A stretch of 36,470 nucleotides of DNA from IMG/VR virus record IMGVR_UViG_3300029868_000028; one strand, written 5' to 3'. A program made the position numbers and the translations under genes. Below the pieces are notes generated by a model. That model searched no databases. It worked only from the letters and a program-made list of their open reading frames with translations, and had not been told where the DNA came from. Each line of letters starts with the position of its first letter. The stretch's first letter is position 1. Positions 11,574-30,358 of this stretch are shown piece by piece. The stretch comes from a virus.

Positions 11574-11574
11574 A

Positions 11575-12036: not shown

Positions 12037-12048
12037 AGGAGAAATAAC

Positions 12049-13398: not shown

Positions 13399-13426
13399 TA
13401 GTAAGCGATAGCGAGCGGATGAAGTA

Positions 13427-13819: not shown

Positions 13820-13854
13820 AGATGAAAGATTTAGGGCAATGTAGCAATATGAAA

Positions 13855-13965
13855 GCTTGTATCGTCGGTGGTAATTGGAGTAACTCTTCTAATGCCGGTG
13901 TTTTTGCTATGAATTTGAACAATAACCGTACTAACTCGAACAACAATGTGGGTGGTCGTGACTGT
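13855..13965 (+). repeat. DGR template repeat (TR)
   Basis: It matches VR1 and VR2. It holds 27 adenines and 11 AAY (Asn) codons in the VR reading frame. Its 3' end gtgggtggtcgtgACTGT differs from gtgggtggtcgtgCCTCT in both VRs (IMH* versus IMH). Confidence 0.85.
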
Positions 13966-13986
13966 ATTTCCAAACCTGAAACAACA

Positions 13987-15093: not shown

Positions 15094-15599
15094 GTTATGA
15101 AAAAGTAGAAACTGAACATACAGTTTTAGAATTTAGAGGTGGTGATGATATTATCAAAGTGAAGCACTATGATGTACCAGTAGTAAGTATTGAAGCTGAT
15201 ATTGAAGCTGATATTGATAGCTTGATAGCTCAGCAACCAGCTGAAATTAAGTGTACTGAACTTGTTAGAGCTGATTTTATTGCTATTACAAAAGATACTG
15301 CACAAACAAAAAGAGCATTAGTGCAAATTAACGATGTATTTGAAAGTAGTGTTAATGCTTTAAGTGATGGTGTTCCGGATAACGAAAGATTATCATGGGA
15401 TAAGCAAGAAGCTGAAGCTAGAGCTTTTGTAGCTGCTTCAACAGCTGCTACACCACTGATTGATAATTTAGCTTTAGCTAGAGGAATTGATAAGGCTTAT
15501 TTAGTATCTAAAATTATTGAAAAAGCTGATTTATCTTCAGTGGCAGTTGGCACATTGGTTGGTGAAAGACAAAAAAAAGAAGATGAGCTTTTAGCATGA
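15078..15599 (+). CDS. Hypothetical protein, possibly tail-fibre assembly/chaperone-like (GTG start with AGGAG RBS)
   Basis: It sits after the fibre/DGR module. It contains an ERLSWDKQEAEARAF motif and an internal 12-bp tandem repeat (IEADIEADID). Confidence 0.3.
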   Translation: MFKYVSYEKVETEHTVLEFRGGDDIIKVKHYDVPVVSIEADIEADIDSLIAQQPAEIKCTELVRADFIAITKDTAQTKRALVQINDVFESSVNALSDGVPDNERLSWDKQEAEARAFVAASTAATPLIDNLALARGIDKAYLVSKIIEKADLSSVAVGTLVGERQKKEDELLA

Positions 15600-15925
15600 T
15601 TTACTCTCAAGTAATTGTACAACCACTAAAAGGTGATAAGTATAAATTACTTGAGGATTTTCAATATAAAACTGTATTAGTACCCAAGGGGTATAAAACA
15701 AATGGTGCAAATATTCCAAGATTATTCTGGGCTATTTACCCACCAAATAAAAGTGACTTTTTACCAGCTGTAATCATTCACGATTATTTATGTGACAAGG
15801 AGGAGTATAAAAAAGCTGATGATTTGTTTGAAGAGTGTTTAAGAGAGTTGGGTGTAACAAGTTTTGATTTAACTGTACTGGTTAAGAGTGTACGGATATA
15901 TCATAAGATTAAATATAAAATCTAA
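15596..15925 (+). CDS. DUF1353-like protein
   Basis: The pattern VPKGYKTNGANIPRLFW...PAVIIHDYLC resembles DUF1353 (from recall). Confidence 0.5.
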   Translation: MIYSQVIVQPLKGDKYKLLEDFQYKTVLVPKGYKTNGANIPRLFWAIYPPNKSDFLPAVIIHDYLCDKEEYKKADDLFEECLRELGVTSFDLTVLVKSVRIYHKIKYKI

Positions 15926-15942
15926 TAAGAGAGGTAAATATT

Positions 15943-17067
15943 ATGGATTTAAATTTTGGTATTAATGGTAGCTTTGATGTAGCTGCTGCAAGACCTATAA
16001 CAATTAGTAGTTCTACACCTATTGGTATAGTAGCAACTGCTAATAATGGTGCAACTGGACTTATGAAGTTCAATAATGCAGATGATGGATTACAGTATGT
16101 AACTGATAATCTTATTACAGATGGTACTTTAGAGATAGCTCTAATTGGTATTTCACTTCAAGGTGTTAACTGTCCTATTGTTGTTCATGTGTCAACACTT
16201 GATGAAGTCACTGAAGCAAACAATATAACTAATGTTTTAGCTGGTCTTGACTTACTAAAGCAATCAGACCCAGTAACTGGCATTGATTTAAAAAATGGTT
16301 TGATTATCGTACCTGAGTATTCAGCTGATTTAACAGTAGCTGCTAAGATGGATAGTATCGCTTCAGTTCTTTGGATGACTGGTATTACAGATAACTTTAG
16401 TGCTGATGAAGCTGGTGTTGTTGATTTTGCTAGTAACTTTGGTAGTAAGTATCTATTGCTTGGTACTGGTAGATATAATGCAGATGGTAAATTAATACCG
16501 TTCAGTTCACTTATGGCTGGTCTTATTGCTTACCATGATGGTAATACATCTTATGGGTGGGCTAAAAACCACTCAAACAGAATAGCAAAAGGTGTCGCTG
16601 GTACTGAAAGAGTCATTGAGTACCTTGATGGTTCAGACTGTGAAGCTCGAAGACTAAGACAAAATTCTGTAGCAATGGTGCTAAAAGATGTTGGTTGGAG
16701 AACATACGGTTTTGAAACTACTGATATTGACCCTATTTGGCAAAGCCTTGATAGAGTTAGAACTTTTCACCGCCTTTTAGCAGCTATTTTAGCAGCTAAT
16801 AAATGGGCTAGAGATAGAGAGGCTGACCAATTAATTTGGGTTAAGAAATCTATCGTAGAGTTTATGAATGAACTTAAAGGTAATAATGTAATTATTGGTT
16901 TTGATGTGTTCTTTGACCCTGAAAAAAATACAGCTGCAACTGTTACAGCTGGTAAGTTTTATTTAACTGTATTGGTTCAAGATATGCCAAGTATCAGAGA
17001 ATTAAATATTGAATTAGTTTACTCAGACAACTGGGGCGAAACTTTAATAAATTACATTAACGGTTAA
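15943..17067 (+). CDS. Contractile tail sheath protein (P2 FI-like)
   Basis: 374 aa, directly upstream of the tube gene. Confidence 0.7.
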   Translation: MDLNFGINGSFDVAAARPITISSSTPIGIVATANNGATGLMKFNNADDGLQYVTDNLITDGTLEIALIGISLQGVNCPIVVHVSTLDEVTEANNITNVLAGLDLLKQSDPVTGIDLKNGLIIVPEYSADLTVAAKMDSIASVLWMTGITDNFSADEAGVVDFASNFGSKYLLLGTGRYNADGKLIPFSSLMAGLIAYHDGNTSYGWAKNHSNRIAKGVAGTERVIEYLDGSDCEARRLRQNSVAMVLKDVGWRTYGFETTDIDPIWQSLDRVRTFHRLLAAILAANKWARDREADQLIWVKKSIVEFMNELKGNNVIIGFDVFFDPEKNTAATVTAGKFYLTVLVQDMPSIRELNIELVYSDNWGETLINYING

Positions 17068-17081
17068 GGAGAAAATATATT

Positions 17082-17582
17082 ATGAAATATCCACAAACTT
17101 TAAAAGATATTAATATCTTTGTGGATGGCTTAGGTCATCTAGGAACATCTAAGGAAATTAAATTACCTACAATCAAGCAGAAAAAGCAATCTGTATCAGC
17201 TGGTGGTTTTGAACAAGATATTGATATAGGTATGTTTGAAAAGCTTGAAGCCGATTTTACTATAAATGAATACAGTCCTATTATCTTTGCAGCAATGGTT
17301 GCAGGGATGGCAACGGGTGCCGGTGTAAATATTACTTGTAAAGCAAGCATTATACAAGGCGGTAAATCTCTAGCAGCCGTGGCAACACTTCAAGGTACTA
17401 TAGAAGTTGATGATGGTACTTGGAAAGCTGGAGCCGAAGTAGAACGAAAAGTTAAAATGAATGTGAATAGATACATTTTAGAAATTGATGGTAAGCAAGG
17501 TTTGTCTTTTGACACTAGAAATATGATAGCTGTGATTGATGGTGTAGACTATTTGGCAGACCTTAGAACACATATCCAATAA
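17082..17582 (+). CDS. Tail tube protein (P2 FII-like)
   Basis: The N-terminus LKDINIFVDGLGHLGTSKEIKLPTIKQK...GGFEQDIDIGMFEKLEADFTINEY is an FII-like signature. Confidence 0.8.
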   Translation: MKYPQTLKDINIFVDGLGHLGTSKEIKLPTIKQKKQSVSAGGFEQDIDIGMFEKLEADFTINEYSPIIFAAMVAGMATGAGVNITCKASIIQGGKSLAAVATLQGTIEVDDGTWKAGAEVERKVKMNVNRYILEIDGKQGLSFDTRNMIAVIDGVDYLADLRTHIQ

Positions 17583-17589
17583 AGGGGAA

Positions 17590-17805
17590 ATGATGAAAAA
17601 AATTAAATTAAGTACTGGTGTAGAAGTAGAGATGAGAGAGCCAAAGGTTAGAGACATGAGAGTGGTATCAACTGAGGCAAATGAACAACTACAAGAGATT
17701 AAGCTAGTGGCTAACCTTACTGGTATGACTGTAGATGAGATTGATGATTTGTCATTAAGGGATTATGCTCTTTTTAGTGAGGGTCTTAAAAGTTTTTTGT
17801 CTTAG
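17590..17805 (+). CDS. Tail assembly chaperone (P2 gpE-like)
   Basis: 71 aa with VEMREPKVRDM. The gene lies between the tube and tape-measure genes. Confidence 0.7.
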   Translation: MMKKIKLSTGVEVEMREPKVRDMRVVSTEANEQLQEIKLVANLTGMTVDEIDDLSLRDYALFSEGLKSFLS

Positions 17806-17939
17806 AATGGAAAAATGTAAAAAAGGGAATGGCTTTAATCGGTCACTCCTTACATTTTTCCTATAACGATATGATGAAAATGAGTATAAAAGATTTTTTA
17901 GATTTTGTGGATGAGGCTAAGCTTTTTGTTGCAAAGTGA
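17590..17939 (+). CDS. Tail assembly chaperone -1 frameshift product (gpE+E'-like)
   Basis: A slippery T TTT TTG heptamer lies at 17793..17799, two codons before the E stop. The -1 frame is open to TGA 17937..17939. Confidence 0.6.
17793..17799 (+). promoter_or_regulatory. Programmed -1 ribosomal frameshift slippery heptamer TTTTTTG
   Basis: Read directly from the sequence. It is the same heptamer type as in P2 E/E'. Confidence 0.6.
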
Positions 17940-18074
17940 ATTTTTTATAAAAAAATAAAACAAACCCAAACGCAAGGGTAAATAAACCTAGTAAGTTTTC
18001 ATCTACTTTTTTAATATCAGCTATGAAAATGATTGATACAAATAATAATAAGGTCATTAATATTGATTTTATAA

Positions 18075-20312
18075 ATGGGAGTCCAAAAAATGAAAGAGAT
18101 GGCAATAGGTTTTGTAATCGGTGGGGTAATAGCTTCATCTTTAAAATCCTCATTAAATACAACTACTAAAAGTTTAGCACAAATTGGTAATGAAGTAAAG
18201 AAACTCAATAAGCAAAAAATTGATATTAAAAGATTTAGAGAGCTTCAAAAAAATACCCAAGGGAATAGAAAAGAGTTTGTTAAGTTAGGTCGAAGTTTAA
18301 AAGCTAGTGGTGTTGATTTAAAAAACTTTTCTAAATATACAGTTAAACTAAATAAGCAGTTGTTACAATTAAAGAAAAACTCTGTAATTAAGGGTCGGAT
18401 TGAAATAGAAAAACAAAGCCTATTTTCTCAAAAAGATAGTTTATTTGCTACACTTGGCTTAGCTGCTGCTGTAGGTGGAGTTATAAACTTAAGAAGTGAA
18501 GTTATGCAAGCCCAAGGTGAGCTTAAATCTTTAAAAATTGGCGATGTTGGCATTGAAAAAATAACCGCCCAAGCTAAAAAATTCAGTAATGAATTTGCTG
18601 GTACTACCACACCTCAATTTATTAAAGCAGCATACGATATAAAAAGTGGTATATCCTCTCTTGGTGATGAAGCAGTGGGTAAGTTTACAAGACTAGCTGC
18701 AATAACAGCTGGGGCTACAAAATCTTCTACTGAACAAATGACCTCATTCTTTGCAACCGGCTATGGTATATATAATAAACAGTTTGCTGAGTTTGGAGCT
18801 AGAACCATTAAGGGATGGGATAAACTAAGTCAAGAAGAAAAAGATATTAAGTTTGGAGAAAGCTTTAGTGCTGGAATTGGTACCGCGGTGCAGATGTTTA
18901 AAACAGACGGTACTAAAATGCAAAATGCTATGGAAACACTTGGAGCAGCAGCTACTACTTCAAATGTACCACTATCTGAGCAGATAGCAATACTAGGACA
19001 AATGCAAAAAACTTTTGCAAGTGGTAGTGAGGCTGCAACTGCATATAAGGGCTTTTTGTCGGGTGCAGTAAAAGCACAAGAAGAACTAGGATTAGAATTT
19101 TTAGATAGTAACAACCAATTAAAATCAGCACCTCTTATACTTGAAGAATTAAGAACAAAATATGGTGATACTTTAGACGATATGGAAAAACAAGAACTTA
19201 AGAAAGCTTTTGGTACTGAAGAGGGTTTAAAATTTATTACTGCATACTATGGGGAGGTTGACGAATTAAAAACCAATATCAATTCAATGGCTTCATCTAT
19301 GAAAGATGGGACCAAAACAGTAGATGATATGATGAAAGCTACACAAAGTGGTAAAGGTTTTACTTTGTTTGCTCAGCAAATGGGAAACTTAGGTGCTACA
19401 GTTGGTAAGATATTTTATCCAGCACTATCACTTGCTACTACTGTTTTAGGTGTGTTGGTTGTTGGGCTTGATAGTCTTATAACAGAATTTCCAATTGTTT
19501 TTAATGCTATAGGTTTTGTAGTCGGTGGATTTATTACATATATTGCAATTTCAAAAACTGCAATGATTGTATCTACTGCTTATAAAATATCTATGTTAGC
19601 ACTAAGAGGTTCTTTTTTAGCGAATGTTGGAGTAGTTAAAGCATTGAGAATTTCACTCAATAGGCTAACTATTCAAAAGATAGGAACAACATTAAAAACC
19701 AAAGCCTTAATCGTAAGTACATGGGCTTTGGGTGCAGCACAAACAGCTGCTGGAATGGCTGGCAAAGTGTTTGCTACTGGTATGATGATAGCAGGCAAGG
19801 CTATGAACTTTCTAAAAATGAATGTACGGCTTTTGATAGGTGCTACTGGTATCGGTTTATTACTTGTAGCAGCTGGTCTTATTTACGAGTACTGGAGTCC
19901 TATAAAAGAGTTTTTTAGTGATTTATGGGATGGAATTATGCAAAAAGCTATGCCATTTTTCAACTGGATAAGTGATAAAATTAGTATTGTTGGCGAAACG
20001 ATAAGCTCATTTGCTAGTTTCTTTGGTTTTGGGGATGATGAAGAAGATACTACAAAAAAATCTAAAGTAGGGGGTACTCTAAAAAAAGCTACTGCTAGTA
20101 TGGTAGTAGGTTCTCAATTAGCAACGGCTCAACCTAATCTAAGTTATGCACAAATGCCAGATATTCAACCAAAGACCCAAACGCAACAAATAACACAACA
20201 TGTAAAGGTAGTGATAAACAATCCAGCGGACACGGTTGAAGTAGAAAAGGCTATTAGAAACGCTATGGCTAATGGTGGTGCAGATAGAAGTCTAAGTGAT
20301 GAGGATATTTAG
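18075..20312 (+). CDS. Tail tape measure protein
   Basis: 745 aa, with a coiled-coil N-terminus, hydrophobic central segments, and the expected position after E/E'. Confidence 0.8.
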   Translation: MGVQKMKEMAIGFVIGGVIASSLKSSLNTTTKSLAQIGNEVKKLNKQKIDIKRFRELQKNTQGNRKEFVKLGRSLKASGVDLKNFSKYTVKLNKQLLQLKKNSVIKGRIEIEKQSLFSQKDSLFATLGLAAAVGGVINLRSEVMQAQGELKSLKIGDVGIEKITAQAKKFSNEFAGTTTPQFIKAAYDIKSGISSLGDEAVGKFTRLAAITAGATKSSTEQMTSFFATGYGIYNKQFAEFGARTIKGWDKLSQEEKDIKFGESFSAGIGTAVQMFKTDGTKMQNAMETLGAAATTSNVPLSEQIAILGQMQKTFASGSEAATAYKGFLSGAVKAQEELGLEFLDSNNQLKSAPLILEELRTKYGDTLDDMEKQELKKAFGTEEGLKFITAYYGEVDELKTNINSMASSMKDGTKTVDDMMKATQSGKGFTLFAQQMGNLGATVGKIFYPALSLATTVLGVLVVGLDSLITEFPIVFNAIGFVVGGFITYIAISKTAMIVSTAYKISMLALRGSFLANVGVVKALRISLNRLTIQKIGTTLKTKALIVSTWALGAAQTAAGMAGKVFATGMMIAGKAMNFLKMNVRLLIGATGIGLLLVAAGLIYEYWSPIKEFFSDLWDGIMQKAMPFFNWISDKISIVGETISSFASFFGFGDDEEDTTKKSKVGGTLKKATASMVVGSQLATAQPNLSYAQMPDIQPKTQTQQITQHVKVVINNPADTVEVEKAIRNAMANGGADRSLSDEDI

Positions 20313-20533
20313 GTATCATCACACTTAATATAAGGCTTCATTGTTTGAGCTACTTTCTCTATATCTTTTGCTTTGATATAGTTCTCTAACCAACTTTCTA
20401 CCCAAGGAGGAACTGGCTTATTTTCATCATTCCAATTATTTACAGTGTTGTATGAGATGTTAGATAAATTTGCAAATTCTTTTTTACTTAAATTTATATC
20501 TTTTAATTTCTTTGTTAATTCTACTTTAAGCAC
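20309..20533 (-). CDS. Small XRE/Cro-like HTH protein, reverse-oriented inside the tail operon
   Basis: LSKKEFANLSNISYNTVNNWNDENKPVPPWVESWL resembles the 35157..35387 protein. Confidence 0.6.
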   Translation of the reverse strand: MLKVELTKKLKDINLSKKEFANLSNISYNTVNNWNDENKPVPPWVESWLENYIKAKDIEKVAQTMKPYIKCDDT

Positions 20534-20604
20534 TATAAAATCCTATAAATATATTTAATTGATGTATTATTTTATCATAATATATGTAAAAGATGTATTT
20601 AATA

Positions 20605-20633
20605 TTGACATTTATATTTATTTGATGTATAGT
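20605..20633 (+). promoter_or_regulatory. Sigma70-like promoter TTGACA-17-TATAGT for the Rha-like gene, overlapped by GATGTAT repeats
   Basis: The hexamers and the 17-bp spacer were read directly. GATGTAT occurs at 20561, 20592 and 20624, with an inverted ACATC at 20646. Confidence 0.5.
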
Positions 20634-20663
20634 TGTATATATAAAACATCAAAGGAATGTAAA

Positions 20664-21329
20664 ATGAAGAACTTAATTGAAGTTGTGAATAGCGAACCAA
20701 GAGTATCACATAGAATAATTGCTGAAAATACTAGCAATAAAGCTAAAAATATCAATGAACTTATTAAAAAGTATATGGATGATTTTAATGAGTTTGGTAT
20801 TGTTCCGTTTGAAACGGAGAAATTAAATCAAGGGGCAGGAAGAAGCCAAATAACTTATTATCTAAATGAGCAACAATTTTATCTACTTATGACATATCTT
20901 AGAAATAGTGAAGTAGTTAGAAGTTTCAAAAAGCAACTTATCAAAGAGTTCTTTAGCTTAAAAGAAGAAATAAATATCTACCAGCTAAGAGGTCGCATTG
21001 GTGGGCTTACCACTTCTAACCAAAAATATCAAAAGATAGTAGTTGCTTTAAGTGATGAAGTAGAGTTATTGAAACTTCAAATGAATACATTAAAAGCTCT
21101 ACCAGCACCAAAAGAAAAGTGTGTACTTCCTCATAGATTTTTAGGAAGAAATGCTTTACTTGATTTTGTTGGTGCAGTTCAAAAAGAGCAGCAGTGTATA
21201 AAAATGCTTTTTGATGAAGTAGCTCAGCTTCATCACAACACAAACTACATGCAAGAAAAGTTTTTTGAGTTATATCCCGAAGCAAATCCAAACGCAATAT
21301 ATAATAAAGAGATACATATACATCTATAA
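20664..21329 (+). CDS. Rha-family phage regulatory protein (start moved to ATG 20664)
   Basis: The N-terminus EPRVSHRIIAENTSNKAKNINELIKKY...ITYYLNEQQFYLLMTYLRNSEVVRSFKKQLIKEF has the Rha-like pattern. Confidence 0.6.
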   Translation: MKNLIEVVNSEPRVSHRIIAENTSNKAKNINELIKKYMDDFNEFGIVPFETEKLNQGAGRSQITYYLNEQQFYLLMTYLRNSEVVRSFKKQLIKEFFSLKEEINIYQLRGRIGGLTTSNQKYQKIVVALSDEVELLKLQMNTLKALPAPKEKCVLPHRFLGRNALLDFVGAVQKEQQCIKMLFDEVAQLHHNTNYMQEKFFELYPEANPNAIYNKEIHIHL

Positions 21330-21401
21330 AATATTTTTTGTCCCCTTTTAAAATAACCTACTTTTTTAATAAACTCTTACAAATTAAAGTAGGAGTTTGT
21401 T

Positions 21402-21788
21402 TTGTTGGCACAAATCAGTGATTATGTATTTGAAATTAATGAAACAAACTTTGATAAGCTAAAAAGTACACTTAATTTTAGATTTACTTCAAGTCAAAGA
21501 CTTGGTAACTTTGATAGTTGGCAAAGTGTAGGCAAGTATGAAGAAACAGTTGAGATAAACGGTGTTTTGATAGCTAAGAGTCAAGAGCAGCTAAAAGACT
21601 TTGAACTGATGGCTAGAGATAAGCTACCGGTTACTATGGCTTTTAGTAATGGAACATGTAGCACGATTATTATATTAACTCTTGAAACTGAAAAAAATAC
21701 ATTTTTAAAAGATGGTGCATTTTTAAGACAAACATATAAGATAAATCTAGCTGTAATTGGTGATGGGTATAGATATGAAAACAGTTAA
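21402..21788 (+). CDS. Tail protein, P2 gpU-like (TTG start, AGGAG RBS)
   Basis: The call rests on size, on its position before the X/D genes, and on the sequence pattern. Confidence 0.6.
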   Translation: MLAQISDYVFEINETNFDKLKSTLNFRFTSSQRLGNFDSWQSVGKYEETVEINGVLIAKSQEQLKDFELMARDKLPVTMAFSNGTCSTIIILTLETEKNTFLKDGAFLRQTYKINLAVIGDGYRYENS

Positions 21789-21978
21789 AGCTCAATCTGG
21801 TGATAGATTAGACCAAATAGCATTTAATGAATATGGTACTTTAAAAGTGCTTGACAAACTTATTGAAGCAAACTCACATTTAGTTACAAAAGTAATCCTT
21901 GATGATAATGATATTGTAAATATTCCAGTTATTGAAATCCAAAAACAGACCATTAAAGAGGTGAAATCTTTATGGTAA
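21757..21978 (+). CDS. Tail protein X (P2 gpX-like, LysM-like)
   Basis: VKAQSGDRLDQIAFNEYGTLKVLDKLIEANSHL is present. Confidence 0.65.
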   Translation: MVMGIDMKTVKAQSGDRLDQIAFNEYGTLKVLDKLIEANSHLVTKVILDDNDIVNIPVIEIQKQTIKEVKSLW

Positions 21979-22910
21979 AAACTCCAAACTTTAAATTAAC
22001 TGCAAATGATACTGATGTTACAGATACTTTAAAAAAAGAACTCATATCATTATCTTTCAAAGATGAAGTAAATGAAAAAGCTGATGAGTTAACTATTAAA
22101 GTTGCTGGTGAGTTTACTAGACCTCAATATGAAGATGAGCTAAAGCTATATCTTGGATATGGTGAAGAACTTACTTTTTGTGGTCTTTTTTTAGTCCAAA
22201 CCACTACACGAGATAATAACAATATTCTAAGCATTAGTGCAACTGGTGTTAATTTTGCAAACAGTTTAAAAGAAAAAAGAGATATTACCTATGAGGCTAT
22301 ATCCATTAAAGATATATGTAGTCAAGTAGCTGCTAGAAGTGATTTAAAATTAAAGAGTGATTTTGATGATATTTCTATATTATCAATAGCTCAAAGTAAT
22401 GAGAGTGACCTACATTTTTTAAACAGACTTGCTAAAGAATATAACTCTATATTCAACATCAAAAATGGAACATTAATCTTTACCAAAAAAATAAAAGATA
22501 AGAAGAAAAATGAAGAGTTACCAGCATATGAAATAAGTGCTGATGAAGTAAGTTCTATATCTATTAAACATTCAAATAAAACATTATATAAATCTTGCAA
22601 ATCAACATGGCATGACACCAAAGAAAACAAAGCTAAAGAAATAACAGCTGGTGCTGGTGAACCATGCTTAATTAACAAAGGTAATTTTAAAGATGAGGCT
22701 GAAGCTAAACTAAAAGCTGAAGCTAAACTACAAAGAGCTAACCAAGGTTTAATAAGTGGTACTTTAGCAACTGATGGTGAAATAATCTTTGCTGGCGGTA
22801 AGTTAGACTTGATAGATACACTTGAAGATGATGGTGAGTATCAAATTAAATCAGTTCAGCATGACTATAGTGCTAATGGCTGGAAAATAAATTTAGAGTT
22901 TGAGAGGTAG
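21972..22910 (+). CDS. Late control/tail protein D (P2 gpD-like)
   Basis: 312 aa, following the gpX-like gene. Confidence 0.65.
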   Translation: MVKTPNFKLTANDTDVTDTLKKELISLSFKDEVNEKADELTIKVAGEFTRPQYEDELKLYLGYGEELTFCGLFLVQTTTRDNNNILSISATGVNFANSLKEKRDITYEAISIKDICSQVAARSDLKLKSDFDDISILSIAQSNESDLHFLNRLAKEYNSIFNIKNGTLIFTKKIKDKKKNEELPAYEISADEVSSISIKHSNKTLYKSCKSTWHDTKENKAKEITAGAGEPCLINKGNFKDEAEAKLKAEAKLQRANQGLISGTLATDGEIIFAGGKLDLIDTLEDDGEYQIKSVQHDYSANGWKINLEFER

Positions 22911-22913
22911 AAA

Positions 22914-23321
22914 ATGGATACTTGGATTATAAGTCCTTTAATTATTATTGCTGGGTTTATTGGTACTTTTGCAGTTATAAGAAGTAAAGTTGTTGTTGGT
23001 GAGAGTAAAAATATTAAGCAAGATGAGAGAATTGAAATACTCGAAAAATTTATGAACAACAACACTCCGCTACTCACTCATTTATCTAAAAGTGAAAATA
23101 CTATTTTTAGTAAACTTGATATTCATTCAAACAATATTACAACAATGCAGCAACAAATAGGACAAAGTCCAACAATGAAAGAAGTTAGGGATGAATTTAT
23201 GACAAAAGAAATGTTTAGACAAGTTGAGAAACATATTGATACTAGGTTTGATAGCTTTGAAAAAAAGTTTGATGGGCTTAGTGATGGTTTAGAAAAAATT
23301 TTAACAGCAATAAAGGGGTAA
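22914..23321 (+). CDS. Membrane-anchored coiled-coil protein (possible holin or lysis regulator)
   Basis: It has an N-terminal TM segment, IISPLIIIAGFIGTFAVI, and lies just upstream of the endolysin gene. Confidence 0.3.
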   Translation: MDTWIISPLIIIAGFIGTFAVIRSKVVVGESKNIKQDERIEILEKFMNNNTPLLTHLSKSENTIFSKLDIHSNNITTMQQQIGQSPTMKEVRDEFMTKEMFRQVEKHIDTRFDSFEKKFDGLSDGLEKILTAIKG

Positions 23322-23323
23322 AA

Positions 23324-23773
23324 ATGGCTAAGAAATTTAAAGGTATCGTTATACATTGTAGTGATAGTTCTTTTGGAACTGCACAAGATATAGAAGACTG
23401 GCATAAGGAACGAGGCTGGAGCGATATAGGTTATCACTGCACTATCTCTAATGGATGGATAGATAAAAATAGATATGTGGACTTCATGGACGGTTCTAAA
23501 GAAATTGGTCGTGACTGGAATATAAACGGTTCTCATGCTAAGGGCTATAATGATTGGTTTGGTGTGTGTTTAGTTGGAACTGATACATTTACTCAAAAAC
23601 AGTTTAATTCTTTGCTAGAGGTATATAAACACTTGATTAAAAAGCATGGTATCAGCATAAAAAATATTATAGGGCATTATGAGTGTAAAAACACTACTAA
23701 AACTTGTCCTAATTTTGATGTAGAAGAAGTTAGAAATATGCTTTTAGCTCAGCTGGAGGAATGGAATGGGTAA
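23324..23773 (+). CDS. Endolysin, N-acetylmuramoyl-L-alanine amidase (Amidase_2/PGRP, T7-lysozyme-like)
   Basis: GIVIHCSDS...GYHCTI...GSHAKGYND...IGHYEC...CPNFDV are present. Confidence 0.8.
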   Translation: MAKKFKGIVIHCSDSSFGTAQDIEDWHKERGWSDIGYHCTISNGWIDKNRYVDFMDGSKEIGRDWNINGSHAKGYNDWFGVCLVGTDTFTQKQFNSLLEVYKHLIKKHGISIKNIIGHYECKNTTKTCPNFDVEEVRNMLLAQLEEWNG

Positions 23774-23960
23774 AAATATTAAATTAGCACTCAGATATGT
23801 AATCATCGCTTTTGTGATGTTTATAGTTTATAAGGTGATACAACCATCTTATATAAAAGAAGTTGCAGACCAGCAGCTATTACAAGTTGTTGTAGTAGCT
23901 GTATTTGGTGCTTTAACTTTGATTTTAAAATTTATGTTTGAACAAGGAGTAGATGAATGA
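23766..23960 (+). CDS. Holin-like small membrane protein (two TM segments)
   Basis: The call rests on its hydrophobic profile and on overlap with the endolysin gene. Confidence 0.45.
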   Translation: MGKNIKLALRYVIIAFVMFIVYKVIQPSYIKEVADQQLLQVVVVAVFGALTLILKFMFEQGVDE

Positions 23961-24253
23961 TTAGATTTTATGTAGCCTTAGCGGTGTTTATTGTAATGAT
24001 TGGTGGTACTATTTATGGTGTCATTCTTTATAAAGATAAAGAGTTCCAAGATGAAAAGATTATTTATAAAAATGAGATAAATACTCTTAAATCTGAAAAA
24101 AATAAGTTGATTGTTGATAAAAAAGAAACTAAGTCAAAGAGAGATTTTATCAACAAAGAAAAAAAGATTGTAAAAAAATCAAATGAGACTAAAGCTCATA
24201 CAAAAAAAATGATGGAGAAAAAAGATGTTAAAGAGTTTACTGATAGTTTTTAG
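23957..24253 (+). CDS. i-spanin-like protein (N-terminal TM plus charged coiled coil)
   Basis: The call rests on the protein architecture and on overlap with the next gene. Confidence 0.45.
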   Translation: MIRFYVALAVFIVMIGGTIYGVILYKDKEFQDEKIIYKNEINTLKSEKNKLIVDKKETKSKRDFINKEKKIVKKSNETKAHTKKMMEKKDVKEFTDSF

Positions 24254-24539
24254 TTTATTATTCTTTCTTAGTGGGTGCAGCACTAAAGAGATTTTATATG
24301 TTGATAAAGAATGTGCTAAGCCGACCATTGATATGACAAAGTTTGCTGAACCTAAGACAAATAGTTTTAAGGTTCATAAAGGTAGCTTTGTAGTGACTAT
24401 AAAAAATGAAGATTATGTTGCGATAAAGACAACAAATCAAAGCATAAAAGATAAATATGTTAAGTTGAGAGAATGGACTATTGTAAATATTAAAAATAGT
24501 TTAATTAAGAATGAAATAGCTAAAAAAGAACCTGATTAG
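24225..24539 (+). CDS. Lipoprotein, o-spanin-like
   Basis: A lipobox (LLFFLSGC) is present. The gene overlaps the i-spanin-like gene. Confidence 0.45.
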   Translation: MLKSLLIVFSLLFFLSGCSTKEILYVDKECAKPTIDMTKFAEPKTNSFKVHKGSFVVTIKNEDYVAIKTTNQSIKDKYVKLREWTIVNIKNSLIKNEIAKKEPD

Positions 24540-24548
24540 GTATGTAGA

Positions 24549-24625
24549 TGGTGGGCTTAGCAGGACTCGAACCTGCGACAACCCCGTTATGAGCGGGGGA
24601 CTCTAACCAGCTGAGTTATAAGCCC
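24549..24625 (-). tRNA. tRNA with CAU anticodon (elongator Met or Ile2), 77 nt with encoded CCA
   Basis: The hand-folded cloverleaf has acceptor GGGCTTA/TAAGCCC, D stem ACTC/GAGT, anticodon stem CCCCG/CGGGG with loop CTCATAA, and T stem GCAGG/CCTGC with loop TTCGAGT. G1-C72 argues against an initiator tRNA. Confidence 0.9.
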
Positions 24626-24634
24626 ATCTATTTA

Positions 24635-24666
24635 ACAAAAGGGACACCCAAAGGGACACCCAAATA
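24635..24666 (+). repeat. 32-bp direct repeat copy A (two tandem AAGGGACACCC units); candidate integrase arm-type sites
   Basis: It is identical to 24833..24864. Confidence 0.8.
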
Positions 24667-24832
24667 AATCTTAAAGTAGTTTATCGCCCTCTACAAGGCA
24701 CTTACAGCTTTTTCTAATTATCCGTTATGAGCCGATAGCACATAATACCATAACTTTGTAAACCTCGTTAAATAAGCCTATTTTCCTATCTTGCTATTGT
24801 AAATAAATCTAAATTTTTATATACTTTTAGAT

Positions 24833-24864
24833 ACAAAAGGGACACCCAAAGGGACACCCAAATA
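24833..24864 (+). repeat. 32-bp direct repeat copy B; candidate integrase arm-type sites
   Basis: It is identical to 24635..24666 and lies 22 bp upstream of the int2 start. Confidence 0.8.
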
Positions 24865-24885
24865 TAGCAAAAGGAACTGGGACAA

Positions 24886-25959
24886 ATGGCTATAGATATA
24901 TCTGACTATCCAAATAAAATAAAAACCAATTTGTGGGCTAATAAAAAACATACAATATTCTACTACAATTTTAAAATAGACACTAAGAAACATAGAGGGC
25001 TCATTGATTTGAGTGATAAAGTAGCTTGGAGTAAAAGAGATAAAATCTCAGTAGCTGAAGCTGAGCTTATCAAAATAAAAGCTGATAAAAAAGATGGTGT
25101 ACTTAGCGATAAAATTACATTAGATAAATTTTTAGAAAAACACTATCAACTTCATGCTGAAACCAACTGGAAAAAAACAAGACTTAGTTTTTATGAAACA
25201 TATATTAGTCCAAGTATCGGTAAAAAAACATTAATATCTATAAGACAACTGCACATCAAAGAAGTTATAAAGATACAAGAAAACAAAAAACTAGCACCTA
25301 GGACTGTTAAACAAACTTTAGAGGTATTATCACCAATATTTAAAGCTGCTGTAGCTAATAGATTGATAGTACATAATCCACTTGATGGAATAAAAATAAA
25401 GCTACCAAAAACTAAAAAGATTGTTACTAATGCAACTGATAAACTGATTGAGATATACAAAGCGATACAAGAAGAGTTTAGTGAAGACCCTTTTTATCTA
25501 TCTTTATTTTTATTTGGTTTACAGGGTAGAAGAAGAGGTGAAATTTTAAAGCTTAGATGGGAAGATATGAACTTTAAAAATGATTATTATGTGCTAAGAG
25601 ATACTAAAAACAATGAAGAACAAAAAATATACTTACCGGATAATATCAAAACTGAGTTATTAAAATTTAAAAGAAGTAGTGGCTGGGTATATCAGTCAAG
25701 AAAAACAGATACACATATAGTTGATATTAGAAAAGCTACTGATAAGCTAAAAACTAGGCTTAATGATGATAACTTTGGTATTCACTATCTAAGAAATGTA
25801 ATTGTAAGTGCTATGGCTGAGGCTGGTATGGATAGTATTCATTTAAGTGGTGCATTAGGTCACAATGACCCAAATACTATTACTAAATATCTTACTTTGA
25901 ATTATCTAAAAGGTAGTGAACTTGCAAGTGATGTTATAGATGGCATAGTTAAGAAATAA
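24886..25959 (+). CDS. int: Tyrosine recombinase/integrase 2
   Basis: RRRGEILKLRWEDM, HYLRNVIVSAM (HxxR) and LGHNDPNTITKYL are present. The gene is adjacent to the tRNA and the repeats. Confidence 0.85.
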   Translation: MAIDISDYPNKIKTNLWANKKHTIFYYNFKIDTKKHRGLIDLSDKVAWSKRDKISVAEAELIKIKADKKDGVLSDKITLDKFLEKHYQLHAETNWKKTRLSFYETYISPSIGKKTLISIRQLHIKEVIKIQENKKLAPRTVKQTLEVLSPIFKAAVANRLIVHNPLDGIKIKLPKTKKIVTNATDKLIEIYKAIQEEFSEDPFYLSLFLFGLQGRRRGEILKLRWEDMNFKNDYYVLRDTKNNEEQKIYLPDNIKTELLKFKRSSGWVYQSRKTDTHIVDIRKATDKLKTRLNDDNFGIHYLRNVIVSAMAEAGMDSIHLSGALGHNDPNTITKYLTLNYLKGSELASDVIDGIVKK

Positions 25960-26244
25960 CTATTGTTCATTTCTTACTTCTATAAATTCACCAATACCAA
26001 TAGCAAAAAAACAACCAGTTCCAAGGTCGGTTAACTCATCATCATCCGTGATACGAAGACCAGCGAATTTAGCTATGATGGTTGGTCTATGTTCACCGTA
26101 ACCATTTACAATTTTTACTAGGGCTATAGGGTCTTTTAATCTTTGTTTCCAGTGTAGTCGTATTTCTCTAAAGTCTTCTTTTTTATGACCGTTTAATATT
26201 TTTTCAAACCACTCTTTAGTTACTGATAAATGTAATGTTTTCAT
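25960..26244 (-). CDS. ASCH-like domain protein
   Basis: The pattern LSVTKEWFEKILNGHKKEDFREI was recognised from recall only. Confidence 0.35.
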   Translation of the reverse strand: MKTLHLSVTKEWFEKILNGHKKEDFREIRLHWKQRLKDPIALVKIVNGYGEHRPTIIAKFAGLRITDDDELTDLGTGCFFAIGIGEFIEVRNEQ

Positions 26245-26432
26245 TATCCACCTACTTCTACAGAGTGGCTTTCAATCCATTCATCTATCTTTTTTCTATC
26301 GTAATATATGAAGCCCCCTATTTTGCAATAAGGTATTTTCTTTTGGCTTCTATAGAGTGCTTGGGTACTTTTTTTCATTCCATAAGCTTCTTCAAACTCA
26401 TCCGTATCCATCCATTTTTCATTAGACATCAC
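26244..26432 (-). CDS. xis: Excisionase/AlpA-like HTH protein
   Basis: 62 aa with YGMKKSTQALYRSQKKIPYCKIGGFIYYDRKKIDEWI. Confidence 0.6.
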   Translation of the reverse strand: MMSNEKWMDTDEFEEAYGMKKSTQALYRSQKKIPYCKIGGFIYYDRKKIDEWIESHSVEVGG

Positions 26433-26438
26433 AGACCC

Positions 26439-26981
26439 CTAAAATGGTATCTCATCACCATCTTCATCTTTTTGTGGTGCTGGTTGTTGGTAGCTTTGTT
26501 GCTGCTGTGGTGCTTGATAACTTGCTGGTGTTTGCTGTGAGTTGGCATAATCATCTTGATAGCCTTGATTGTTGTTATCTTGGGTATCTTGCATGGTTTT
26601 AATATCATAAAGATAATTAACCACTTCACCATCAAATCTTGGTTCAGCTTTCCAAACAGCTATAGAGACTTTTGTAAAAGCTACTTCAAGTGTCCCAGTC
26701 ATAAACTTTTTAAGTACACCATCAATAACCTTTTCACCAAGCCATAATGAACCAATAGCAATATCTCTAAAACTATCACCTTTATTTATGTTACTTCTAA
26801 GATAAATAATGAAGTCCGGTTGGTTTGGTTTTTCTTTTCTTTTGTTTGGTGTCATTTTTGCACTAAATGGTCTAATGCCAGCTATTCTAAAATGACATTC
26901 AAGCCATTTAATTACTTTACTCTCTTTTGTATCTTTATCTTTTACACTCATACTTTCTTGTTTTATGAAACCTATTTGCAT
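26439..26981 (-). CDS. DUF736-like domain protein with a Q/P-rich linker and SSB-type acidic C-terminal tip (..DEDGDEIPF)
   Basis: The N-terminus has IGF...NQPDFIIY...IGSLW, a DUF736-like pattern from recall. The C-terminal architecture mimics the SSB linker plus DDDIPF tip. Confidence 0.45.
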   Translation of the reverse strand: MQIGFIKQESMSVKDKDTKESKVIKWLECHFRIAGIRPFSAKMTPNKRKEKPNQPDFIIYLRSNINKGDSFRDIAIGSLWLGEKVIDGVLKKFMTGTLEVAFTKVSIAVWKAEPRFDGEVVNYLYDIKTMQDTQDNNNQGYQDDYANSQQTPASYQAPQQQQSYQQPAPQKDEDGDEIPF

Positions 26982-28069
26982 TTTAATTTTCCTTTTTTAT
27001 TGTTTAATTTATTATATAGTGAGCTATCGCTCACTATTACAGAGGCACGACCACCCACAGTGTTGCTCGAGTAAGTACGGTTATTGTACAAATACATAGC
27101 AAAAACACCGGCATTAGAAGAGTTACCCCAATTACCACCGACGAGACAAGCTAGTTCATTCCTAGCATATCTATACACACCAGCCTTAGCAAATCTTTCA
27201 TTACTATTATCACTAAGTGCTTTTGTTCTAGGAATACCCATACATGTTTTTATATAATCTTTAGAGTAAATATCATCACTCATTTTAAAAGCTGTAGTTT
27301 CATCGCTGGTATACTTCCAACCACCATCACCAATAAACTTAGTCAAGTCTAAATTATCATAAAAAGTTTCATTATATGCCTCAGTATCACTTTCAAGTTC
27401 AGCAGCTGCTGAATTAAACTTAAGCACTTTAAAAATTCCATCTTCATCATTTAGTTTAGTTAGTCCAGCTGCAACTTCATATCTTGATGGGTCAATGTTT
27501 TTTACACCACATTCTTGATTGTTATGAAACTTCATTTGTTCTAACTTATTTCCATTATTTGCATAAGCCAACATTCCTAAAGCATTCCAAATAAATAGAG
27601 TTGTTAAAAAATGCTTATCACCTCTTGTTTTAACCGCTTTATACAGTCCACCAAGGTTAGAGTTAGGATTGTTACTTAAATGCGAAATAGAGTCATTCCC
27701 ATAAGTACTACAAGGTTTTAAATCTTCTTTACTTGTAAACTTACCATCCACATTACCACATTCATATTTATCTATGAAAAAACCATCTTGTTCAGCACCA
27801 CCATCTATAAAAGCACGGTGTAAAACATAACCATCTTTTTCAACTGCTGAAATCTTACATTTGTTCTTTTTAGTCCACTTAAAATAAAACCTAGGTATCC
27901 ATACCATCACTGAACCATTATCATCTAAAACATTTCCATAGTTGGAATGTTCCGGGTTATCGTGACCATCTAATTTACTCCAACCTTTTGGAACTTGTTT
28001 ATCTTCAATGGCTGCTACACCAAAACCTACTTCACCAGCTACACCAATTAAATCTACATTATGTTCCAT
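26972..28069 (-). CDS. DGR target protein 2 (remote): FGE/C-type-lectin-like paralog of 12049..13398 lacking its N-terminal about 50-60 aa
   Basis: It shares blocks GFGVAAI, NYGNVLD.NGS.MVW.P.FYF, GYV.HRAF, GFF.DKY.CGNV.GKF, and GGLY.AVKTRG. Its C-terminus ACLVGGNWGNSSNAGVFAMYLYNNRTYSSNTVGGRAS is VR2. An AGGA RBS lies upstream. Confidence 0.85.
   Translation of the reverse strand: MEHNVDLIGVAGEVGFGVAAIEDKQVPKGWSKLDGHDNPEHSNYGNVLDDNGSVMVWIPRFYFKWTKKNKCKISAVEKDGYVLHRAFIDGGAEQDGFFIDKYECGNVDGKFTSKEDLKPCSTYGNDSISHLSNNPNSNLGGLYKAVKTRGDKHFLTTLFIWNALGMLAYANNGNKLEQMKFHNNQECGVKNIDPSRYEVAAGLTKLNDEDGIFKVLKFNSAAAELESDTEAYNETFYDNLDLTKFIGDGGWKYTSDETTAFKMSDDIYSKDYIKTCMGIPRTKALSDNSNERFAKAGVYRYARNELACLVGGNWGNSSNAGVFAMYLYNNRTYSSNTVGGRASVIVSDSSLYNKLNNKKGKLKCK
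27017..27036 (-). promoter_or_regulatory. Perfect 8-bp stem / 4-nt loop hairpin (TAGTGAGC-GATA-GCTCACTA) 4 nt downstream of VR2
   Basis: Read directly from the sequence. Its position and geometry match the DGR target hairpin/cruciform described for Bordetella phage BPP-1. Confidence 0.7.
27041..27151 (-). repeat. DGR variable region VR2
   Basis: The reverse complement aligns over 111 bp to the TR. There are 8 mismatches, all at TR adenines, plus the same 3' G>C seen in VR1. Confidence 0.85.
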
Positions 28070-28183
28070 CTTATTTTCCTTTTATGCTTACTATCACTTT
28101 GCCTTTTCTCTTTATGGCATTCACTAATCCCTCATCTACTGAGTATTGAAAGATTTTTATTAGATCATCAATACCGACCACTA

Positions 28184-28193
28184 CCCCCCCCCC
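28184..28193 (-). repeat. Homopolymeric G10 tract (C10 on the plus strand) 115-124 nt upstream of the DGR target 2 start codon
   Basis: Read directly. No other G/C homopolymer run of comparable length was seen in the window. Confidence 0.9.
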
Positions 28194-28237
28194 TAAGAAA
28201 CAAGTTATCTATATTTATTCTAATCTCTGTTTTTTCA

Positions 28238-28747
28238 TCATTTACTTGCATGTTGTATTTCCTTTATATTTTTATTTGCTCTAACTACACTTGAATAGTA
28301 AGAAACGGTTACCTCTCTTTGATAAACTATTGCACTACCACACACTCCACATTCAATAGTGCCACTATCAATATATTCCCAATTATCACTAAACTCATTA
28401 GCACAATTAGGACATGTAATCTCATCATTATCATGACTTGTTTCATTGAATGGTGGTTCTTTAATCTCTTCAACTGAAAGAAGATTTAGTTTAAAATCTT
28501 GGTGACATAATTTATAAAATTTATCATCAATTTTAATTATTCCACTTTCAAATTCAACACCATCATCAAGTTCTTTTATTATCTCAAAATCATCAATAGT
28601 CTTACTTACTTTAGCAACTACTGATACATCCCATTTAACTATGTAAAAAGTGCTTTGTTCTTTTACTTCACAATGCTCAGAACACATACCACATAAACCA
28701 GTTTCATCTACAATAGGGTAACTACAACAGTTACTTATTTTTTTCAT
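28238..28747 (-). CDS. Hypothetical zinc-ribbon protein
   Basis: Cys clusters CC..x..CGMCSEHC and CPNC...CGVCG are present. The gene is coupled to parB. Confidence 0.4.
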   Translation of the reverse strand: MKKISNCCSYPIVDETGLCGMCSEHCEVKEQSTFYIVKWDVSVVAKVSKTIDDFEIIKELDDGVEFESGIIKIDDKFYKLCHQDFKLNLLSVEEIKEPPFNETSHDNDEITCPNCANEFSDNWEYIDSGTIECGVCGSAIVYQREVTVSYYSSVVRANKNIKEIQHASK

Positions 28748-29643
28748 TATCCTAACCTCACAAATTCATTATTTATCATCACATAGATATTAAGTTCTTC
28801 TAAGTGGTAATTTCCACCTACTCCACCTAAAACCTCACCAAAATGGTCACTATCTTTTTTTGTTGGTATAGTTACCTCAAAAGGGACCGGCTTACCATCT
28901 TTAGTATGATAAGACTGCTGAGAATAATGCTTTGAAGATTTTTTAATCATTGCATATAGTTGAGTTTCTTTTTTCGCCGGCGAAATTTTTACATCTTTTA
29001 TTACTTTTATAGCTCTGTTATAGTGTCTTATTTCCTCTCTTGTTAAATTTGTTTGATAAGCTTCAAGTTGCTTAGCTTCATCTTTTATATTACTAAGCTC
29101 TTGCAATATCTCTAAACCAATATCTTTTTTATTAGCTTCAATATCAGCTACTATTTCATCACATATTTTTACAGCTTTAAAGACCTTTGATAAATAGCTT
29201 TGTGGTTTACCTATTGCAGCAGCTAATTCTTTTTTAGTTTCATAGTTTTTACTAGCCCAAAGCTGATTTATAAATTTTGCTTTTTCAAAATCTGTTAAAT
29301 CATCCCTTTGGATATTTTCTACAAGTGCTAATTCAAGTACCTTTTTTTCATCGGCTACTATTATGTGAGCTTTGATAGTTTTTAGTTCAAGTGTTTCACA
29401 TGCTCTAAATCTTCTTTCACCGCTGATAATCATGTATTTACTATCAACTTTAACAACTGCTATAGGTTGAATTAAGCCATTAGTAGAAATACTAGCTGCT
29501 AACTCATCAATCTCATTAAAGCTTTTTCTAGGCTGGTTAGGGTTCGGATATACTTTGTGTAGTTCAAGCTCTAAAAATGGACTTACACCAGTAGTTCTAA
29601 CCTTTCCTTTAGTAGCTGAATTAATCGCTGATAAGTTCATCAC
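28747..29643 (-). CDS. parB: ParB-like partition/nuclease-domain protein
   Basis: VYPNPNQPRKSF...LIQPIAVV...YMIISGERRFRA is present. Confidence 0.85.
   Translation of the reverse strand: MMNLSAINSATKGKVRTTGVSPFLELELHKVYPNPNQPRKSFNEIDELAASISTNGLIQPIAVVKVDSKYMIISGERRFRACETLELKTIKAHIIVADEKKVLELALVENIQRDDLTDFEKAKFINQLWASKNYETKKELAAAIGKPQSYLSKVFKAVKICDEIVADIEANKKDIGLEILQELSNIKDEAKQLEAYQTNLTREEIRHYNRAIKVIKDVKISPAKKETQLYAMIKKSSKHYSQQSYHTKDGKPVPFEVTIPTKKDSDHFGEVLGGVGGNYHLEELNIYVMINNEFVRLG
28972..28985. repeat. 14-bp palindrome TTTCGCCGGCGAAA, copy 3 (in parB)
   Basis: Read directly from the sequence. Confidence 0.9.
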
Positions 29644-30232
29644 ATAGCCTTTTAATTTCGCCAGCTGCTACTTTGTCTTTTACATCAAAAACAGATTTAC
29701 CAACACCTAAAGTATCTTTGTAAATTTTTCTATTTCTTATGATAGATTTTTGCAGTTTTATTTGTGGGTTATCACCAATAGCTCCAGTAATCACATCAAA
29801 GTTTTTAGCTAATGGGTGTATGTTGTTCAGTACCACATTAATGAAAGGGTTTTGTATCTCTTGTAGTATCGCTTCAAATGTTTTAAAACCAAGTACCTCA
29901 GTAACACTATTTGCAATAGGTACTACAACTTTATCAGCCCAAGAGATAGCAATACGGTTAATATCATTATCAAAACCACCTACATCAACTATAAGGTATC
30001 CATCATAGTTTTCAAATAGTTCTATAAGTTCATCACCGCTTTGTGGTTGAACTACATCTAAACTATCAAGCTTTGTTTCTACTCTTATATGGTTGATAAA
30101 AAAAAGTGTTTGTTGAAAATCTAAATCAACTATAGTTACTTTTTTACCATCGGCTTTTAAAGAGTTAGCCAAGTTCCAAGCAAGGGTAGATTTACCAGTG
30201 CCACCTTTTGAATGTGCTACTGTAATAATCAT
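29621..30232 (-). CDS. parA: ParA-like partition ATPase (small, no N-terminal HTH)
   Basis: It has the deviant Walker A motif HSKGGTGKST, is 203 aa long, and overlaps parB. Confidence 0.85.
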   Translation of the reverse strand: MIITVAHSKGGTGKSTLAWNLANSLKADGKKVTIVDLDFQQTLFFINHIRVETKLDSLDVVQPQSGDELIELFENYDGYLIVDVGGFDNDINRIAISWADKVVVPIANSVTEVLGFKTFEAILQEIQNPFINVVLNNIHPLAKNFDVITGAIGDNPQIKLQKSIIRNRKIYKDTLGVGKSVFDVKDKVAAGEIKRLCDELISD

Positions 30233-30358
30233 AGTACCACCTCAGATAATCTATAAATTAGTTCTTCAAAACTAACAAATATGCCTTTTATATTTTCTAA
30301 CATCCCAGTTCCTTTTTATCTATCTAGTTATAAATCTTTATAACCTTTTAGATATTGT

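Follow-up and report, generated by a model that had tools for sequence, protein, structure and literature searches.

This analysis concerns a gene of the virus held as IMG/VR record IMGVR_UViG_3300029868_000028, whose 36,470 nucleotides (nt) of DNA are referred to here as the window. The gene, target 2, is an open reading frame (ORF) of 365 amino acids (aa) on the minus strand, and its 3' end carries a variable repeat (VR2) that matches the template repeat (TR) of a diversity-generating retroelement (DGR) encoded on the plus strand. The element also contains the accessory protein Avd, a reverse transcriptase (RT) and an adjacent variable protein, target 1, with a variable repeat of its own (VR1). 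IGxxxSQ and YxDD motifs are marks of DGR-clade RTs. A first-pass annotation, made from the letters alone, had taken target 2 for a second, remote target of the same element. The features needed to judge that proposal are the following, where IMH stands for the initiation of mutagenic homing sequence at the 3' end of a variable repeat.

12049-13398, plus strand: target 1, a 449-aa long-form variable protein at the position of the tail-fibre gene gpH of P2
13275-13384, plus strand: VR1, in target 1 (TR comparison)
13404-13412, plus strand: AGCGATAGC motif after VR1 (motif scan of the window)
13427-13819, plus strand: Avd accessory protein (PF22296 bAvd, E = 8e-17; phrog_3206)
13822-15093, plus strand: RT ORF with the motifs IGNLLSQ and YVDD (PF00078, E = 6e-17; phrog_1423, E = 5e-114)
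13854-13963, plus strand: TR, in frame within the 5' end of the RT ORF
26972-28069, minus strand: target 2, a 365-aa short-form DGR variable protein and paralog of target 1
27016-27037, minus strand: hairpin with a 9-bp stem and a GATA loop, 5 nt past the VR2 IMH, holding the AGCGATAGC motif
27023-27031, minus strand: AGCGATAGC motif after VR2 (motif scan of the window)
27042-27058, minus strand: IMH-like G/C-rich 3' end of VR2, GTGGGTGGTCGTGCCTC, the same as in VR1 and two positions off the TR
27043-27152, minus strand: VR2, 3' end of the target 2 gene; 8 mismatches to the TR over 110 nt

VR2, its template and the elements 3' of the repeats

In a repeat search of the window, the TR at 13854-13963 and VR2 at 27043-27152 were recovered as a 110-nt inverted repeat of 93% identity, and 13263-13384 was paired with 13842-13963 as a direct repeat. 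TR and VR2 lie 13.08 kb apart. Base-by-base comparison placed the TR-VR2 mismatches at 13861, 13879, 13912, 13918, 13933, 13940, 13946 and 13961, and every one of the eight hits a TR adenine, of which the TR core holds 28 in 110 nt (hypergeometric p = 7.6e-6). All eight substitutions alter the encoded amino acid, the TR encoding ...IVGGNWSNSSNAGVFAMNLNNNRTNSNNNVGGRD and VR2 ...LVGGNWGNSSNAGVFAMYLYNNRTYSSNTVGGRA. VR1, compared in the same manner, shows 20 mismatches to the TR, 19 of them at adenines; the single remaining one is a G at window position 13293 against the T at TR position 13872, where a contig from another sample (L005) also has a T. VR1 and VR2 differ from each other at most variable codons.

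The earlier description of a 111-bp match with eight mismatches, all at adenines, stands for the 110 nt at 27043-27152, whereas the limits then given, 27041-27151 (TR 13855-13965), take in a ninth mismatch, G>C at 13964. Positions 13964 and 13961 form a fixed difference between the IMH and its counterpart in the TR (IMH*), present in every relative that was read, and the mismatch at 13961 is best understood as a marker of IMH versus IMH* and not as a product of mutagenesis. As had been noticed before, the 18-nt IMH at the 3' ends of VR1 and VR2 is identical (GTGGGTGGTCGTGCCTCT); the IMH* reads GTGGGTGGTCGTGACTGT, ...GACTGT, and the A/C distinction between the two is kept in all relatives read. 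With all eight mismatches at TR adenines and an IMH common to VR1, the proposal of a second, remote target of the same DGR held up, and on sequence grounds VR2 is a genuine second acceptor for the single TR of this phage.

Beyond the IMH, both variable repeats are followed by the AGCGATAGC motif: the pattern RRCGATAGY has two sites in 36 kb, both just 3' of a VR and in VR orientation. At VR2 the motif lies in the hairpin, which folds as DNA with -8.8 kcal/mol (z = -4.9, none of 200 shuffles being equally stable). DNA folding gave no hairpin after VR1 (z = +1.7), although VR1 varies. The hairpin was therefore rejected as a common cis element, and because VR1 lacks it, the element that VR1 and VR2 have in common is a sequence motif and not a structure. 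In the relatives read, a motif of roughly the form GTGARCGATAGYGAGC is found 5-25 nt past the IMH of every VR1 and VR2 and never past a TR; it may be a target-recognition element that is set by sequence rather than by a hairpin.

The DGR itself is at work in this phage. L005, a contig of 4880 nt, equals window positions 11002-15881 save for 18 positions, all of them within VR1 and 16 of them at TR adenines. Because the two differ only within VR1, the element is mutagenic in the window phage itself. As a separate observation, the TR is in frame inside the 5' end of a long RT ORF (423-425 aa) in the window (13822-13965) and in two related contigs (L014, 1240-2517; L004, 11750-13027), so either RT translation begins past the TR, or the TR itself codes for part of the RT.

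The short-form protein and its family

Target 2 aligns to target 1 with 39% identity (BLASTP, E = 2e-84), bearing out its earlier description as a paralog of the fibre-tip target. The alignment begins at target 1 residue 47, not at about residue 55 as had been estimated, and some 65 internal residues of target 1 are absent from target 2. The structure predictions that the first-pass annotation had suggested were run with AlphaFold for both paralogs, giving mean predicted local distance difference test (pLDDT) values of 88 for the short form and 92.5 for the long form. The short-form model (AlphaFold 2; predicted template modelling score, pTM, 0.91) is a single globular C-type-lectin domain of the FGE subtype. 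In the long-form model, residues 2-51 make up three helices that are found in the long form only, so that the absence of an N-terminal segment from target 2, claimed previously, is seen in the models as well; these helices may serve as a fibre-docking element. Foldseek returned TaqVP (5vf4, E = 3e-12) as the closest solved structure, followed by Mtd (1yu*, E = 2e-3), human FGE and TvpA. According to the model and the structure search, VR2 encodes the ligand-binding face at the C-terminal end of a C-type-lectin-fold protein, as is the case for DGR targets. Target 2 is thus the conserved C-type-lectin binding tip alone, without the N-terminal helices and without one internal insert. Neither target matched a family in Pfam or NCBIfam.

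These results bear on the main rival to the interpretation favoured below, namely that target 2 is a second receptor-binding tip of the virion, alternative or additional to target 1, which is assembled on the tail via its conserved N-terminal core and provides a second, independently diversified specificity. The predicted viral structural neighbours of target 2 are C-terminal tips of longer 'tail collar fiber' proteins, many annotated tail-collar or fibre proteins end in this fold, and the PHROG matches of target 2 include tail-protein families. Residues 1-180 are well conserved with respect to the long form, including the IGxxGxxGFGV start, and two-target phage DGRs have been described in which both products are proposed receptor-binding proteins (PMC10743442). 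Against such a role, target 2 has no counterpart of helices 2-51, the segment by which the long form would be attached, and TaqVP, the structure that it matches best, is monomeric and consists of a single domain. Together with the gene contexts described in the next section, this makes a virion tip possible but rather unlikely.

In its N-terminal half (residues 31-181), target 2 shows about 31% identity with hypothetical proteins from virulent jumbo myophages of Campylobacter, among them CP220, CP21 and CPt10, and a 583-aa protein of CP220 is its best match among viral structures (E = 4.5e-22). Because of these matches, the scaffold is widespread in Campylobacterota phages, including some whose DGR status was not looked at.

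A protein search separated a short class, 50-84% identical to target 2 and about 342-362 aa in length except for two members of 397 and 403 aa, from a long class of mostly about 420-482 aa. A long and a short protein occur as a pair in at least four independent Campylobacterota phage lineages, each VR matching its own TR. The VR2 mismatches to the cognate TR fall on adenines in 14 of 15 cases in L001/L014, in 18 of 18 in L002 and in 13 of 15 in a prophage of Halarcobacter anaerophilus, whose two genes are about 40 kb apart; the pair is also present in L086, a near-identical relative of L002 for which mismatches were not counted separately. L086 and L002 have no difference over about 6.6 kb (avd, TR, RT, lysis genes and int) and five differences in VR2, all five at TR adenines. 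VR2 of the window and VR2 of its closest relative, L079, disagree at 19 of 110 positions; 16 of these sites are TR adenines (p = 3e-9), and the 300 nt upstream of VR2 are 93% identical. Outside the VR, the ratio of nonsynonymous to synonymous substitution rates (dN/dS) of the short-form gene is 0.13-0.27.

Taken together, the short form has the marks of an old conserved family under purifying selection and not of a decaying copy. The view of target 2 as a duplicate in decay or as a passive reservoir, its similarity to the TR being merely inherited, could draw on the closeness of the window VR2 to the TR, on the substitutions that it has in common with VR1 and on a C-terminus changed by an 8-nt deletion. 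However, the ORF is intact and constrained outside the VR, the family is kept at 50-84% identity across many phages, in four phages the differences of VR2 from its own TR are nearly confined to adenines, near-identical phages have adenine-site differences in VR2, and both the IMH and the downstream motif are intact. The reservoir option raised in the first-pass annotation therefore fits poorly, and we consider this explanation highly improbable.

Exact-pattern scans of metagenome and viral contigs gave no match to the VR2 3' flank, an exact look-up did not find the target 2 protein on record, and megablast with window positions 12000-30300 gave no match among GenBank phages. A genome scan with a profile of the short family returned one contig only, from a Sulfurimonas sp. 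metagenome-assembled genome (MAG), which is identical to L079. The closest relative of target 2 (L084, 84% identity) lies on a 3-kb contig, JAQIBW010000122.1, that was binned to a Sulfurimonas sp. MAG, and this binning gives a hint as to which host group the window phage belongs to. Short-type genes are also present in genome assemblies of Halarcobacter anaerophilus and Aliarcobacter butzleri; the Halarcobacter prophage carries a complete long-plus-short DGR set and offers a route to direct testing.

The genes around target 2

Target 1 stands in the tail region, where homologs of baseplate J and I are followed by a 153-aa protein (11575-12036) and target 1, with sheath, tube and tape-measure genes further on. 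Target 2 belongs to a leftward string of overlapping genes in the order ParA, ParB, 169-aa protein, small ORF, target 2, 180-aa protein, 68-aa ORF, Xis and 94-aa protein, which converges on int. The genes are as follows.

24886-25959: integrase, 357 aa (profile search)
25960-26244, minus strand: 94-aa protein (ORF)
26244-26432, minus strand: Xis (HTH_17; profile search)
26439-26981, minus strand: 180-aa protein with an acidic tail like that of single-stranded DNA-binding protein (SSB), ...DEDGDEIPF, overlapping target 2 by 10 nt
28071-28251, minus strand: small ORF broken by a poly-G tract, G10 at 28184-28193
28238-28747, minus strand: Cys-rich 169-aa protein (ORF)
28747-29643, minus strand: ParB (profile search)
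29621-30232, minus strand: ParA (profile search)
31.4-32.9 kb: CI (S24)/Cro/CII immunity region

The earlier placement of target 2 in the ParA-ParB-...-xis string and outside the tail module, about 13 kb from the TR, agrees with these co-directional overlapping genes. Target 2 lies between ParB and xis, away from any tail or fibre module, and the same is seen elsewhere: among the 10 contexts read, the short-type gene adjoins int or att in seven, follows a CI-like repressor within an early operon in one and flanks a terminase gene in two, and in none of the 10 is it a neighbour of Avd/RT or of tail genes. No partner or chaperone gene near the short paralog proved to be conserved further than the close relative L079, and the neighbours of the short gene are not conserved. 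For a virion tip, it is unfavourable that the short gene has early, lysogeny or terminase-boundary neighbours, that it stands in a tail module in 0 of 10 contexts and that no conserved partner or chaperone gene goes with it. A distant 414-aa homolog (P0072), tried for short N-termini in fibre modules, had an uninformative context. An invertible alternative fibre segment of the Mu or P1 kind, which the inverted orientation had brought up, was rejected, the short gene being on the same strand as the long gene in L002, L086 and Halarcobacter. A scan of the gene string for promoters and terminators was uninformative, with fewer promoter-like sites than in shuffled sequence and without a terminator in the string.

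The positions near int raise another explanation, in which target 2 is a lysogen-expressed conversion gene whose diversified product serves as a binder for superinfection exclusion or as a decoy. In the window, L014, L002/L086 and L080 the short gene adjoins int/att, in Halarcobacter it stands first at the prophage end, and DGR-diversified immunity proteins have been proposed (PMC10053308). However, no signal peptide or lipobox was recognised when the target 2 sequence was read by eye, no predictor having been run, so that a surface receptor would be hard to reach; the string overlapping with xis in the window should be off in a stable lysogen; and VR2 is not matched to VR1, so the phage's own receptor cannot be masked. 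The decoy suggested in the first-pass annotation is thus unlikely in its VR1-matched, receptor-masking form, because the VRs differ and no signal peptide was recognised, and for a conversion gene as a whole the prospects seem poor.

Upstream of target 2, an apparent gap of 168 nt proved to be the small ORF, interrupted by its poly-G tract and overlapping the end of the 169-aa gene. A tract of G9 would yield a conserved 59-aa product with its stop 1 nt before the target 2 ATG. The window has G10 where L079 has G8 (936-943), the only indel of that stretch, in a comparison of two sequences in which a homopolymer assembly error is possible. G10 is the only run of G8 or longer in the window, against 0.09 expected. 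Poly-G phase-variable contingency loci are known in Campylobacter and Helicobacter. The tract resembles them in lying, at G8-G10, inside a small frame of a genome with 32% G+C, in varying in length and in that one length restores a conserved ORF; unlike them it sits in a phage early operon directly upstream of a DGR target, and switching is a candidate only. We regard the small ORF as a candidate phase-variable leader for target 2. Single G/C homopolymers also occur in the early regions of relatives (L002 8312-8320, G9; L086 11283-11291, G9; L003 12613-12619, G7; L080 14332-14339, C8); their distances to the short target gene range from about 0.4 to about 3.7 kb, and their position is not consistent.

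Two side observations concern the integration functions. A second tyrosine-recombinase or integrase-like ORF of 260 aa lies at 121-903 on the plus strand (phrog_1, E = 4e-45), just upstream of neck and terminase genes. Just upstream of int, two identical 32-nt direct repeats, ACAAAAGGGACACCCAAAGGGACACCCAAATA, are found at 24635-24666 and 24833-24864, 198 nt apart; each holds a GGGACACCCAAA doublet and scores as a minus-strand terminator-like hairpin, and they may be att or arm-type sites.

Proposed function and known systems

We consider it likely that VR2 is the second acceptor of a single DGR, and for its product we favour a free, early, non-fibre variable binder. By analogy with Bordetella phage BPP-1, the avd-TR-RT cassette at 13.4-15.1 kb would produce TR RNA, which RT and Avd would turn into complementary DNA (cDNA) with misincorporation opposite adenines, and this cDNA would then replace any DNA in the cell having TR homology that ends in an IMH. 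Such a reaction would act in trans, so that the distance of 13 kb and the strand would be immaterial, and VR1 and VR2, with the same IMH and the same AGCGATAGC element, would each be rewritten independently. Target 2 is probably not mounted on the fibre in the way target 1 is, because the helices are missing and the gene is always outside tail and DGR modules. Because the overlapping gene string ends in xis, target 2 probably shares the expression of the early-left operon (ParA-ParB-169aa-small ORF-target 2-180aa-xis), after induction or infection. Our best guess is hence a free, diversifiable ligand-binding protein, favoured because docking helices are absent, the gene is never in tail modules and it is part of the overlapping string linked to xis.

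Several points weigh against this interpretation. Missing N-terminal helices are no proof of absence from virions, the timing of target 2 expression is read from gene order, and in Halarcobacter the short gene stands at the end of the prophage, where lysogen-expressed genes typically lie. The window VR2 is the least diverged VR among those seen, with 8 of 28 adenines changed, and five of its eight substitutions are the same as in VR1; no second copy of the VR2 region of the window phage was found, so its own diversification was not directly seen. Finally, an 8-nt deletion (GTTTATCT) relative to L079 lies just past the IMH (window 27032-27041; L079 2102-2109). It abolishes the usual stop of the family (...SVYL*) and adds a 19-aa tail, modelled with low confidence, whose 19 extra codons read through the hairpin and overlap the start of the next gene.

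A broader and more speculative version would hold that temperate phages of Campylobacterota maintain a conserved, non-virion, DGR-diversified tip-only lectin as an early free binder, for example one that recognises variable molecules of the host or of a competitor as a counter-defence or host-takeover factor, and that its translation is gated by the poly-G leader; we think this improbable. If it were true, the poly-G-gated target 2 would join hypermutation and phase variation on one phage gene. Regardless of function, the window provides a clean case of trans action, with one DGR serving two sites on opposite strands 13 kb apart, and the cis elements common to both sites, the IMH and the AGCGATAGC motif, are well defined. 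The family of the second target keeps the binding domain alone and always outside tail genes. If target 2 is not in virions, phage DGRs would serve not only to switch host range but also to diversify a soluble binder; should virions contain it, a fibre tip is encoded apart from the structural genes.

The arrangement has clear counterparts among known DGRs. Like the BPP-1 element (Mtd, bRT, Avd, IMH), the one described here combines Avd with an RT having IGxxxSQ and has the VR encode the C-terminal end of a protein with a C-type-lectin fold; in both, a G/C-rich IMH tells VR from TR, and the hairpin that follows the BPP-1 VR is matched at VR2 by a stem-loop, its loop 4 nt long, just past the IMH. 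Unlike BPP-1, there are two targets here, the hairpin is absent at VR1, and the common element is the AGCGATAGC motif. TaqVP, from a Thermus aquaticus prophage DGR (PDB 5VF4, PMC6328139), is likewise a single globular C-type-lectin domain of the FGE subtype with a C-terminal VR, and matches target 2 over its full length (Foldseek E = 3e-12, TM score 0.55; 365 vs 381 aa). In contrast, sequence identity between the two is only about 14%, and the paper on that DGR names TaqVP as its target and mentions no further paralog.

The first-pass annotation had called the combination of two targets unusual, which is overstated. The passages on prophage elements in Wu et al. (2018, NAR, PMC5758913) speak of 'many examples' in which a phage-associated DGR has one target next to it and another, non-adjacent one within the same prophage, and two-target gut-phage DGRs, with tentaclin and tgt2 as targets, were described by Baykov et al. 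(2023, PMC10743442). The elements in those passages of Wu et al. resemble the present one in having one RT/TR and two VRs, one beside avd-TR-RT and the other kilobases off inside the phage, with A-to-N differences between TR and VR and action in trans. Compared with what these passages describe, the remote target here differs in being a shortened paralog of the adjacent one, which forms a conserved family of its own, and in its consistent location at early, lysogeny-proximal or module-boundary sites of Campylobacterota phages. The tentaclin/tgt2 elements also have one TR and two VRs, in two C-type-lectin proteins, and their VRs diverge independently; there, however, the targets are topologically unrelated and both lie in the DGR cassette, whereas the two targets of the window phage are paralogs, the second of which is remote and surrounded by early genes. 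A full-text literature search for DGRs together with Arcobacter gave nothing relevant. Because Wu et al. (2018) and Baykov et al. (2023) describe two-target phage DGRs, the two-target architecture is already known; what appears to be new is its occurrence in this lineage and the conserved tip-only, non-tail paralog as the second target.

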